From NCBI RefSeq assembly GCF_029227855.1, contig NZ_CP074357.1: 64,000 bases of DNA; one strand, 5' to 3'. The position numbers were made by a program. Origin of the DNA: Escherichia coli (GTDB taxonomy: Bacteria; Pseudomonadota; Gammaproteobacteria; Enterobacterales; Enterobacteriaceae). The number at the start of each line of letters is the position of its first letter. Position 1 is the first letter of the stretch. Positions 12,001-15,000 of this stretch are shown in pieces.

Positions 12001-15000
12001 GGGGTTAATAATAACTTTGGCCATACCCTGGTGCTCTGGTCTACGTTGAGTAGAAGTTTGAGCGTTTACGCCTTGCTTTTTATTTGAACCTTTTACCATT
12101 ACATCTTTTGGTTCAATGTTAATACGCTCATTGTCCGTGATAATTGCGTCGGTCATTGTGCCACCTTAGTTTTTGAGTATTGACGGATTTTTCGTCCAAG
12201 TTCGATATATGCTGAATGATAGAGCTCAAGCATTTCTCTGTAAGGCTCCAGCAATGCTTCCGTTTCAGAAATCATTTCGTATTCCCAGCTGGCATGGTTT
12301 ACAAAACAGTTCTTAGAATATTTTCCACTTTTCATTGGTTGCACCCGTTTTGACATGTGACTAGGCGCTCTTGTTTTATAAGGGCTGAACTGATGCCAAG
12401 TGATCGTTACTTTTCTGGCATTACCAATTAGCTCAACTTTTGGTGCGTAAGAACCCAGATACTCCCTCTTTGGAACTTTGCTATGTCGGGTAAGGTTAAT
12501 CTCTTGGTGGTTTCGTTCCTTCCACTTGATCCAGTATTTTGTAATGAGATCTTCAGCCTCAACACGCAAACCTTCAATCTGAGCACGTAAATTTTTACGT
12601 GTTAGCTCTATAGAACTTATAAGATTCGAATTACTCATGACGCCTCCTGATGTGAAATTACTATACCGGAGGAAATTTCCGTTTTTTTTCACGAACAGAA
12701 GATTTTTGAATGCTCTTTGATGAGGGAATTGAACAGATGTAATGCACTCGCTGTTTCCCCCATTCGGGAGGGGCCTTCAGAAACAGTAACAGCGAGTTTA
12801 GCCTCACTTCCATCGCTACCCTCTAAAGTTACTTTTGAGGGAATGACCATTGTGGATTATTGCTTTTGATAATGTGCATTGCTCTATTAAAGTTATACAT
12901 ATATCTAGTGCCACTTTTCCAAAAAAAATGACCCTATGGAACTTTGTCCATAGTGACACTTTTATAAAAAGTGACCCTATGACGACATTACATAGGGTCA
13001 CTTTTCAAACATAAGTGACCCTATGTGAGGTATTCATAGGGTCACTTTTCTTTGTTTAGTGATCCTATGTAAGCATGAGGTTGATGAAAAGTAAAAATGT
13101 CAGTTTATGACGGTCAGTGAAAGACGTCGTTATTCTAATCCAACGTTGGGAGGGGCTGGATTTAGGTTTTTTTTTAATCGCTTCACATTTCGTTAGCATG
13201 CGAAGAAATTTTGATAAAATTCTGGTCAGTTTGGTTAAAAAGTGTTACAAGTAAGCGGTGTGGTTGAAGGGATAGATTTAAGGCTTATTCAAGCCTTAAG
13301 AAAATACTAAAAGTTACTTTTCACCCTACCGAACACCTAACAAAAAATCCATGTTGAAGATTTGAACAATTGTAATGGCGCAAGGACAATCAGCACATGT
13401 CAGAATCTGATAATTTAACTCGTAGCTTACTCGGTAAACTTTTCCGCACTGAGATTTCGCTTATTCGTAGTTACCGTGCATTTTTAATGTTATTGCCTGT
13501 GCATGGATCTTCTGCATATCAAACTGGGACTCCTCTTCTCCAGCGTCGCCTATTTGGGAAAGGATTTAGTACAGCCGCTGATTTAGCTTTTGAAGTGGAA
13601 ACACGTCCAGGTAGTTTTTTGGTTCCGCGTACACTCGGAAAGGAAATTACATGGGAGAGGTTTTTTTCTGCGGTCTTGGACGGTGATTCCAATGTAATTC
13701 GTGAATATGATACAAATGATATTGACTATGGTATTTACGATGCCGGTGAAAAAGTGACTTTTCTGAATGGTACAGTGGATATCTATAATCCCAAGAAGAT
13801 TCATGAGTTGCGTTCTAAATGTGTTGATATACAGAATGACTACTTTATGCAGGTGTTCTTTATCTCAATGCTCGCACCAGAGTTTGTAAGTGTTTTCTTT
13901 GGTTTAAAACCAACTACAGCTGATGCTATTAAAGACATTGGTTATTCATCGTTAAAAACAATTAACGATGTCGTTCTTTTCCCACGTACAATTGCTTTCT
14001 CACAAGGGCATATTGAAGAGAGTGTTTCACTTAAAACGAAAGTTTTTGCCTGGGCTTATGAATTGTCTGCTGACATCCGGTTAGGAAAAGTTAGTGATGA
14101 TTTGATGGAACTATTACGTTATGACACTATGTTCACCAGTCACCGTCAGGATGTGTTCAACACTTTAACAAATAAAGTTATGTTAAAGGATTATTAATAT
14201 GGCAAAGGTCGATCAAACAAAAGCTAATGCTCTATTGCGAGCAGCAAGGACTATGTCGCTTGGGGCAAATAAAAATACAATACGAATTTTGTACGGTAAT
14301 CATGTTGCTGAAAATATCGATTTTGAGCCTGGTGCAAAAACAAAACTCAAAAAAGGTATCCGGGGCTGGAGCAAACGCACAGATAACCGCCGAGCTTTTT
14401 CTGCTGTTATTGATGTCGCAGTTAACTATTTTGGTTTTGATCCAATAAATCCGGAAGCGAGTTTTCGGCAAATTGACTTCAACCGAATAATGAGTGTCCT
14501 TCATAATCTGGGATACTTTGTATGCGCACCGGAAGTTAATAAAATAATAGAAATCCTTACTTCTATGAAAGAAATTGAAGAACTAGGTGCCTGCGAAAAA
14601 TGTAAACGCCCATACATTGTGCCAGTGACAAATGATGCTTATTGTCCACGTTGCAGATTATCTTCAACTGCTTCAGCCATAGAGAGGTATTCTCAAGAAG
14701 AATTAGATTAAATTTAAAAAAGATATCGCGAAACTTGCCTTGTCTGAATCTAAATATTGACTTAAGTCAAATTCTGTTGTTTGCTTTACAATCAAATATT
14801 AGTTACAACTTAAATATTAACTCTTGACAAGTAAAGATATAATTTGATTTTTCTTTATACAGTCTTTCTTCGTTCCAAAAAATGTTCACCTTTTTTTCTG
14901 TTGAAAACGTAAAACTACTTAGGTTCTCTAAAACCTTCTATGCATGACGACTTCTTAATCGCTTTCAATTAATATATTTTATATTCTTGCCTAAGTTCGC

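Follow-up and report, generated by a model that had tools for sequence, protein, structure and literature searches.

The gap between the MobI-family gene mobI (traH in R27) and trhR of an IncHI2 plasmid is in all probability the origin-of-transfer (oriT) region of that plasmid, and it contains a strictly phased array of eight short half-sites. With moderate confidence in the reading as a whole, we regard this array as an assembly platform on which a relaxosome is built by an oriT-specific factor. The traH–trhR gap has been known as an oriT since 2002, and the locus itself is not new. For the array, a full-text literature search with the motif strings returned nothing relevant, nor did keyword searches bring up an IncHI palindrome or motif. 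The region (12639..13396, no strand) lies in the window, that is, the whole stretch of 64,000 nucleotides of Escherichia coli DNA that was analysed. Sequence comparison assigned the window to the IncHI2 plasmid type; the region is 100% identical to that of pSTM6-275, and about 960 plasmid records contain it at an identity of at least 95%. Plasmids of this type are important vehicles of mcr, ESBL and heavy-metal resistance genes.

The gap is flanked by two divergent operons, just as the initial annotation had described. On the minus strand, the gene of a coupling protein (T4CP) is followed towards the gap by the gene of the MOBH-family relaxase TraI (8263..11415; NCBIfam NF041494 MobH, 255.6 bits, and Pfam TraI_2), by a 245-aa gene (11419..12156) and by mobI (12153..12638), so that relaxase, coupling protein and accessory genes immediately adjoin the gap on its left, as is expected of an oriT. 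The 245-aa gene, recognised from its ORF, annotation and a profile search, is co-transcribed with mobI and the relaxase gene, and it stands beside mobI in all lineages. On the plus strand, the divergent regulator genes trhR (266 aa) and trhY (170 aa), identified from their ORFs and the predicted TrhY fold, occupy 13397..14711 and are succeeded by further trh genes. The mobI product matches the Pfam family PF19456 (MobI) with an E-value of 2.7e-22 and 79.5 bits against a cut-off of 26.6 bits, which places a MobI-family protein at the oriT edge as in the MOBH11 (IncHI) module; PGAP labels the gene 'MobI(A/C)'. The operon-proximal protein had been described as one of 179 aa; the gene is indeed there, but its start is probably the ATG at 12638, preceded at 5 nt by AGGAGG, which gives a product of 161 aa. 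With this start, the gap spans 12639–13396 and measures 758 bp.

The base composition of the gap and its relationship to R27 both support the oriT assignment. G+C content falls from 44.1% in the surrounding backbone to 37.9% in the whole gap and 35.0% in the array, and repeats exceed chance, as detailed below. R27 carries the same eight-half-site array in its own traH–trhR gap of 757 bp. This R27 fragment was reportedly cloned by Lawley et al. in 2002 and mobilised by R27. To our knowledge, it has never been dissected, so that none of its elements has been given a role. In blastn comparisons, IncHI1 plasmids showed 72–76% identity over about 70% of the gap, as expected of an ortholog of the MOBH11 (IncHI) module, and R27 itself agrees: about 70% of its gap can be aligned, with an identity of about 75%. 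The MobI-like gene of R27 lies directly beside oriT (PMC10838148), and its product, TraH, is a MobI-like mobilisation factor (bioRxiv 10.1101/2025.04.21.649884). The comparison with R27 that had been suggested at the outset thus bears out the oriT-like character proposed for the region.

All repeated elements of the initial annotation are present in the sequence, and their arrangement proved more regular than it had indicated. At least five copies of a 12-bp motif in both orientations had been reported; such copies exist, but they are better described as eight copies of a 15-mer half-site with the consensus AAAAGTGACCCTATG, four exact and four degenerate, whose orientation alternates strictly along the array. 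From core to core, distances of 18 and 26 bp alternate, which makes the period 44 bp and the array a row of four tail-to-tail dyads. Dyad 1 consists of S1 (TCTAGTGCCACTTTT, 12904..12918, minus), the eighth copy, which is degenerate in its outer part and identical in IncHI2, IncHI1A, IncHI1B and Photorhabdus, and S2 (AAAAATGACCCTATG, 12924..12938, plus). It is followed by dyad 2 with S3 (CATAGTGACACTTTT, 12949..12963, minus) and S4 (the consensus AAAAGTGACCCTATG, 12967..12981, plus), dyad 3 with S5 (the consensus CATAGGGTCACTTTT, 12991..13005, minus) and S6 (ATAAGTGACCCTATG, 13011..13025, plus), and dyad 4 with S7 (again CATAGGGTCACTTTT, 13035..13049, minus) and S8 (TTTAGTGATCCTATG, 13055..13069, plus). 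The 12-mer AGTGACCCTATG occurs exactly at 12970(+), 12991(-), 13014(+) and 13035(-), four copies where 0.0076 would be expected by chance in 64 kb; it recurs with one mismatch at 12927(+) and 13058(+) and with two at 12949(-). When up to two mismatches are allowed, the 64 kb contain 10 matches against 3.3 expected, and 7 of these 10 fall within 143 bp. The two palindromes with 9-bp spacers, noticed earlier, are likewise real: the arms of one (12967–12981/12991–13005) are complementary over all 15 nt (100%), those of the other (13013–13025/13035–13047) over 13 nt without a mismatch, and both spacers are of 9 nt. As judged from the comparison of sequences, however, the structural unit that is conserved is not the head-to-head palindrome around a 9-bp spacer but the tail-to-tail dyad, ACTTTT-N3-5-AAAAGT.

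Several other readings of the repeats were discarded. ORFs of 50–61 aa that run over them consist of repeat sequence, and the stretches that separate half-sites are not conserved between lineages. An Rfam scan of the region gave sub-threshold, hairpin-type chance matches only (at most 30.7 bits, where the gathering score is 83). The likeness of GATCCTATG in S8 to the IncP nic consensus ATCCTG was dropped, since it is confined to IncHI2, other groups having GACCCTATG.

The array is unique in its plasmid. Its sites score 14–26 bits, no half-site above 14 bits was found elsewhere in the 275,801 bp, and the 276-kb pSTM6-275 holds no copy of the motif outside 191964–192129. Such uniqueness bears on the idea that the repeats serve an unrelated maintenance function (a partition centromere, iterons or a dimer-resolution site) that happens to lie between transfer operons. 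Centromeres and iterons do typically consist of short repeats in phased arrays, and a period that is a multiple of 11 bp recalls ParR-type centromeres, but the parA/parB, parM and RepHI2/RepB loci are 70–175 kb away and lack the motif. A partition or iteron role was rejected on finding no motif at the par loci (15–22 kb) or the rep loci (0–1, 97 and 261 kb) of pSTM6-275; the site of a partition protein, which the initial annotation had named as the finding that would speak against an oriT, is therefore not what the plasmid presents. The array always accompanies mobI and the relaxase operon and in no case a par or rep gene, the exception being ParM-like neighbours in two distant lineages with different repeats, and the fragment reported as mobilisable in R27 is its ortholog. 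Overall, we consider a maintenance function highly improbable.

Homologous arrays stand upstream of mobI in ten lineages, in which MobI identity goes down to 32%. Their inner A-tract/AGT element is kept, reading AAAAGT in nine lineages and being relaxed in L026, while the outer half-site is lineage-specific (CCTATG, ACTATG, CAATG, AACATAA, GAGATG and CAGGTATAG). The 18/26-bp core spacing is kept in IncHI2, IncHI1A, IncHI1B, Photorhabdus and L017; the period is 44–46 bp in L021 and L023 and 55 bp in L026 (4x11 and 5x11), and the copy number varies in 44-bp steps. In IncHI3, the head-to-head spacing is variable (27–44 bp) and the tail-to-tail spacing is kept. Where a ParM-like gene takes the place of trhR as divergent neighbour, mobI is still preceded by repeat arrays, and IS-bounded fragments have retained mobI together with the array and lost trhR.

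This distribution helps to weigh the possibility that the array is an operator or enhancer of the divergent promoters, bound by a TrhR/TrhY activator of the FlhDC/SetCD/AcaCD kind or by the antagonist HtdA, and that it serves to control the transcription of mobI-traI and trhR-trhY, not to assemble a relaxosome. Several tra operons, located in both transfer regions, are under TrhR/TrhY control, and a box of the FlhDC/SetCD/AcaCD type would be repeated upstream of several controlled operons, but the motif is found nowhere else in the 276 kb, all other tra promoters included. The persistence of arrays in lineages without trhR as divergent neighbour, the IS-bounded fragments and the loss of head-to-head spacing in IncHI3 argue against it as well, and the model of TrhY reaches no more than moderate confidence (pLDDT 69). 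We hold such a regulatory role to be unlikely. A promoter-like element TTAGCA-16-TAAAAT with an upstream TG (13193..13220, plus), matched by consensus and part of a block common to IncHI1 and IncHI2, is a putative trhR promoter. As for TrhY itself, it shows an invariant CxxC-X13-CxxC pattern and a predicted FlhC-like fold in the same model.

An alternative of similarly low probability is that the inverted repeats act mainly as single-strand hairpins, whose 15-bp stem or stems the MOBH relaxase would use as recognition sites in nicking and termination, as the gonococcal TraI does, with the copies being redundant or alternative substrates. Both strands of 12895–13080 do fold far better than shuffled sequences (-38.5 and -40.5 kcal/mol, z -9.5 and -9.0), and from lineage to lineage the two arms change in concert. 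The sole MOBH relaxase studied biochemically depends on an inverted repeat of 32 nt that lies 3' of nic and whose structure counts for more than its sequence (PMC6736028). The concerted change of arms is, however, equally expected of repeated protein sites. A hairpin needs complementarity only, so that the strict identity among copies within the plasmid speaks for binding of a protein to one face of double-stranded DNA, and phasing in multiples of 11 bp across lineages (44 and 55 bp) fits the same mode. Four tandem substrates would, moreover, predict several nick sites, which is unusual. A hairpin role and the platform reading are not mutually exclusive, and the initial description of the region as suited to binding sites and a hairpin was a fair one; the binder and the position of nic are what we infer below.

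The single-copy conserved box TTATACAT (12893..12900, plus), which abuts the first half-site, is a candidate nick region suggested by the lineage comparison. Its pattern, TTA(A)(T)TAC(A/T)T, derived after the sequences had been seen and with a background of 0.116 per kb, occurs once and in one orientation, 221–268 bp from the mobI ATG, in nine of the ten lineages. By analogy with the MOBH relaxase of the gonococcal island, whose cut falls 3 nt 5' of an inverted repeat (PMC6736028), nic might lie at the TTATACAT box, a placement that we offer as tentative. The separate 10-bp inverted repeat further upstream was also recovered: its perfect arms ACTCGCTGTT and AACAGCGAGT (12746–12755/12788–12797; whole element 12746..12797, no strand) enclose a 32-nt spacer. 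As a conserved nic hairpin it was rejected, having no counterpart in five other lineages. Being absent from every other lineage compared, this IncHI2-specific element is unlikely to be part of the core oriT.

Returning to the platform reading, we may picture its operation as follows. The oriT core would be a 177-bp A+T-rich module (12893–13069), in which the TTATACAT box is followed by four dyad-symmetric units of the form CATAGGGTCACTTTT-N3-5-AAAAGTGACCCTATG, repeating every 44 bp, or about four helical turns. Each dyad would be the site of one dimeric, oriT-specific accessory protein of the relaxosome, for which the neighbouring MobI-family TraH is the likeliest candidate; specificity for oriT would reside in the lineage-specific outer bases GACCCTATG, and the inner A-tract/AGT element is common to all relatives. 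On the in-phase array, a cooperative nucleoprotein complex would form, to which TraI, the MOBH relaxase, is recruited. One strand would next be cut by TraI at the TTATACAT box or adjacent to it, on the edge nearest to mobI, and the plus strand would leave with its 5' end first towards trhR, the Dtr genes entering last.

That MobI/TraH is the binder of the array is a plausible proposal, on which we would not quite venture an even wager. Transfer requires MobI, a protein that associates with itself, binds the C-terminus of the relaxase and is believed to provide the recognition of oriT, its sites being undefined (bioRxiv 10.1101/2025.04.21.649884; PMC7449626). What connects it to the dyads here is genomic association and co-variation. 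Protein divergence points to no single binder, since it proceeds in step in MobI, TrhR, TrhY and the 245-aa protein. The AF2 model of MobI is a confident one (pLDDT 90.8); the predicted fold displays no canonical DNA-binding domain, and the fold search gave coiled-coil and prefoldin-like matches only. Sequence searches of the PDB yielded no match for MobI, TrhR or TrhY.

A 13-bp palindrome, AAAAGTnACTTTT, is dispersed over the plasmid in 49 copies, where about 0.4 would be expected. Two copies flank the array (both no strand): AAAGTNACTTT (12825..12836) lies 187 bp upstream of the mobI ATG in a position kept in IncHI1, IncHI2 and Photorhabdus, and AAAAGTTACTTTT (13309..13321) lies 77–88 bp upstream of the trhR ATG. 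A fixed promoter beside the dispersed palindrome was looked for, and no conserved flanks were found; a class-II-like -10 near 12825 was discarded, as it is not conserved in IncHI1. It is tempting to speculate about a two-part code for MOBH1 origins, in which a cognate MobI dimer would read the outer bases of the phased dyads, the edge box TTATACAT would be the MOBH1 nick region, and the inner AAAAGT would tie oriT to the approximately 50 AAAAGTnACTTTT palindromes, bound by a putative IncHI global DNA-binding protein in the manner of the IncP KorB network. We regard this scheme as rather doubtful; if it were true, the outer bases would set which plasmid's relaxosome can use the origin. In the MOBH1 group (IncHI, IncA/C, IncT and SXT/R391), no nick site or MobI binding site has been defined, and the dyads and the box are concrete candidate sequences for both. 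The anatomy of the array could also predict which oriT-only or mobI+oriT fragments, for example those on IncY phage-plasmids, are mobilised by which IncHI helper.

Finally, we would like to place this region among other transfer origins. The TraM sbm sites of F/R1, the wrapping by TraK in RP4 and the TrwA sba sites of R388 are phased oligomer sites beside nic that cover 150–200 A+T-rich bp and overlap transfer-gene promoters. With these classical accessory platforms the IncHI2 array shares the working principle only, proteins and motifs being unrelated.

The gonococcal genetic island (MOBH2 TraI) is similar in having a MOBH-family HD-domain relaxase and an oriT between divergent operons, and its nic 3 nt 5' of the inverted repeat may be compared with the conserved box that directly precedes the first dyad in IncHI2 (PMC6736028). 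It differs in its single inverted repeat, the lack of MobI, and a relaxase of another subclade with another C-terminal domain.

Closer are the oriT-mobI modules of IncA/C and SXT/R391 (MOBH12), where oriT is immediately upstream of a MobI-family gene whose product is indispensable and presumed to be the protein that recognises oriT (PMC5587640; PMC7449626; bioRxiv 10.1101/2025.04.21.649884). The IncA/C oriT is likewise A+T-rich (37% G+C against 35–38% here), with short direct and inverted repeats needed for full activity; no nic is known for any MOBH1 element, attempts in IncA/C having failed (PMC5587640). It shows no detectable sequence similarity to the IncHI2 array, and its geometry, compared by description, consists of overlapping 14-bp direct repeats and six small inverted repeats in about 150 bp, whereas IncHI2 has four phased dyads of 33–35 bp. 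Furthermore, mobI is apart from the relaxase operon in IncA/C and SXT/R391 and heads it in IncHI2.

The closest relative is the oriT of R27. Its mobI-proximal 250 bp are largely unrelated to those of IncHI2, and the 10-bp inverted repeat is absent, but the two origins have in common the flanking genes, the gap length (757 against 758 bp), the array, the TTATACAT box, the two flanking palindromes and the promoter-like block of trhR.

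Eight 15-nt half-sites (S1–S8, 12904–13069) form an array in the mobI–trhR gap (12639–13396). Exact copies of AGTGACCCTATG stand at 12970 (+), 12991 (−), 13014 (+) and 13035 (−), that is, four copies against 0.0076 expected in 64 kb; two further copies carry one mismatch, one carries two, and a degenerate eighth occupies 12904–12918. In its 15-nt extended form, the half-site reads AAAAGTGACCCTATG. Orientations alternate strictly along the array, and so do the GTGAC core-to-core distances, 18 bp tail-to-tail (ACTTTT-N3-5-AAAAGT) and 26–27 bp head-to-head, resulting in a 44-bp period. 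The initial annotation had described at least five copies of a 12-bp motif in both orientations, two perfect palindromes with 9-nt spacers and a separate 10-bp inverted repeat. All of these were found, the palindromes being the head-to-head pairs S4/S5 and S6/S7 and the inverted repeat lying at 12746–12755/12788–12797. The observation is thus confirmed, with an array larger and more regular than first described, and the oriT-like interpretation of the region was essentially right.

On the minus strand, the gap is bordered by genes for proteins of 161 aa (mobI, 12153–12638), 245 aa, 1050 aa and 694 aa; the divergent plus-strand set comprises the 266-aa and 170-aa genes (trhR and trhY), followed by trh genes. 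The ATG of mobI at 12638 is preceded by AGGAGG, and an upstream GTG, listed as the start of a 179-aa ORF, is the alternative. The 161-aa protein belongs to the MobI family (Pfam PF19456, E = 2.7e-22), and NF041494 (255.6 bits) marks the 1050-aa protein as a MOBH relaxase. IncHI2 plasmids such as pSTM6-275 share 100% identity with this region, and it recurs at ≥95% identity in approximately 960 plasmid records. In the IncHI1 prototype R27, mobI (traH, 107664–108149) and trhR (from 108907) are arranged as in the window, and the proposed comparison with R27 oriT revealed the same array in the 757-bp gap, with five exact and three degenerate motif copies in the same order. Lawley et al. (2002) reportedly cloned the R27 traH–trhR fragment and saw it mobilised by R27. 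The MobI-like gene of R27 directly adjoins oriT (PMC10838148), and its product, a mobilisation factor, is TraH (bioRxiv 10.1101/2025.04.21.649884). Taken together, these correspondences identify the window segment as the IncHI2 ortholog of the mapped oriT fragment of R27; the locus is an element of an already known kind, in a position already known from R27.

When the gap was aligned between IncHI2, IncHI1A and IncHI1B, the mobI and trhR leaders, the block AAGTTATACATATATC followed by the entire array, two palindrome copies (12825–12836 and 13309–13321) and a promoter-like block (13193–13220) proved conserved; the inter-half-site spacers and the 250 bp adjoining mobI had diverged. For more distant lineages, the percentages below give the identity of their MobI to that of the window. 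Six half-sites are present in Photorhabdus (86%); lineage L017 (54%) carries eight, of the form AAAAGTnACACTATG, spaced 18/26 as in the window. Lineage L021 (42%) carries five to six dyads at 44–45 bp, IncHI3 (39%) four dyads CATTGGTAyCTTTTTT-G-AAAAAAGGTACCAATG at 44, 45 and 56 bp, L022 (38%) two dyads, L026 (33%) dyads CTATACCTGACTAATT-GT-AATTAGTCAGGTATAG at 55 bp and L023 (32%) three dyads at 46 and 57 bp. Tail-to-tail spacing is constant across these lineages while head-to-head spacing varies in IncHI3, which argues that the basic unit of the array is a tail-to-tail dyad of 33–35 bp. The 44-bp and 55-bp periods, four and five times 11 bp, suggest binding on one helix face. The inner A-tract/AGT element is conserved (AAAAGT in nine lineages, relaxed to A-W-W-AGT in L026), and the outer half-site bases are lineage-specific. 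In two still remoter cases, a ParM-like gene takes the place of trhR as the divergent neighbour of mobI, and the repeat arrays upstream of mobI are of different design.

The best-supported reading is that the array would act as a relaxosome assembly platform, offering four in-phase dyads to an accessory factor that is dimeric and specific for oriT. The strongest candidate for this factor is MobI/TraH, because arrays accompany mobI in every context examined and because MobI is needed for transfer, self-associates, binds the relaxase C-terminal domain and is held to confer oriT selectivity through binding sites as yet undefined (bioRxiv 10.1101/2025.04.21.649884; PMC7449626). Its confidently predicted structure (pLDDT 90.8), a three-strand sheet between two long helices, resembles a coiled-coil hairpin or prefoldin and matched no known DNA-binding fold, which counts against MobI as the binder; divergence rates do not set it apart from neighbour proteins either. 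The inverted repeats might also serve as single-strand hairpins for the relaxase, a role compatible with the platform. Both strands indeed fold with z of about −9; however, hairpins leave unexplained why the copies are identical in sequence and helically phased.

A centromere or iterons, including the partition site envisaged by the initial annotation, were rejected: the location is wrong, and the par (15–22 kb) and rep (0–1, 97 and 261 kb) loci of pSTM6-275 hold zero motif copies. Across the whole of this plasmid (275,801 bp), AGTGACCCTATG at up to one mismatch was confined to the array, and a weight-matrix scan returned nothing above 14 bits and no paired sites outside it, the array sites scoring 14–26 bits. 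Outside the window, a 248–249-bp tandem repeat (pSTM6-275 12515–14025; about six copies, 74–76% matches) fills the unannotated gap from a TraC-family gene to parA, and may act in cis for the partition locus, for instance as a centromere.

The pattern TTA(A)(T)TAC(A/T)T (TTATACAT in the window, 12893–12900) occurs once in nine of ten lineages, in constant orientation, 221–268 bp from the mobI ATG and abutting the first half-site, its background being 0.116 per kb. Since the pattern was drawn up post hoc from sequences already seen, it counts as a lead rather than as a test. The nick site is undefined in all MOBH1 systems (PMC5587640); the gonococcal MOBH relaxase depends on an inverted repeat and cuts 3 nt 5' of it (PMC6736028). 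By analogy, the box on the + strand is a candidate nick region, and nicking there would make the trh side the first, and the Dtr genes the last, to enter the recipient.

IncHI1A, IncHI1B, Photorhabdus, L017 and IncHI3 all lack a counterpart of the 10-bp inverted repeat, which is an unlikely core oriT element. Spanning 12746–12797, this IncHI2-only repeat is perfect and improbable by chance; it has a 32-nt spacer and contains a second G/C-rich sub-hairpin (CCCCCATTCGGGAGGGG), and it lies in the otherwise unconserved mobI-to-array stretch. A small hairpin CGGAGGAAATTTCCG followed by T8 (12667–12689) lies just ahead of the mobI ribosome-binding site and is terminator-like on the + strand; the T8 run, unlike the hairpin, is conserved in IncHI1.

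Fragments bounded by IS1 that combine the oriT array with a mobI of IncHI1B type and its neighbouring hypothetical gene, but have no complete relaxase, occur in L001 (E. coli D5 plasmid A, IncY, 112 kb), L007 (Cronobacter pCrono684-2, IncY) and two further loci, L002 and L006. The Cronobacter array is short of exactly one 44-bp unit. MOB-suite types these replicons, IncY (P1-like phage-plasmid) and others, as non-mobilizable; IncHI plasmids may be able to mobilise them in trans. The internal grammar of the array appears to be undescribed in searchable literature, and yields specific, testable predictions for MOBH1 conjugation.

Finally, the array is flanked by two copies of a palindrome, AAAGTNACTTT (consensus aAAAGT(A/T)ACTTTt), that is sharply defined and dispersed over the plasmid; it shares AAAAGTnAC with the half-site, and we found no description of it in searchable literature. 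Twelve copies lie within the first 28 kb of the window (1332, 6234, 7964, 9402, 12825, 13310, 13751, 16370, 23282, 25375, 26276 and 27840) against 0.43 expected, and pSTM6-275 (276 kb) has 49 against about 0.4, the runner-up palindrome of that form reaching 11. Nearly all are in backbone DNA and, as hand-mapped on annotation tables, about half fall between genes or at gene junctions. In the 21 site-to-gene pairs measured, the palindrome precedes the start codon of the next gene downstream by 82–301 bp, with random flanks. It is present in R27, IncHI1B, IncHI3 and every IncHI-like lineage examined, down to 32% MobI identity, and missing from the two MobI lineages without trhR/trhY neighbours. 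One copy lies inside the trhR coding sequence (window 13751–13761; R27 109261; comparison loci L004 2361 and L019 1924), at a codon position shared by IncHI2, IncHI1 and Photorhabdus; it could be a conserved site within the gene and not a coding by-product. Overall, the set looks like candidate operators of a global DNA-binding protein, comparable to the KorB sites of IncP plasmids.
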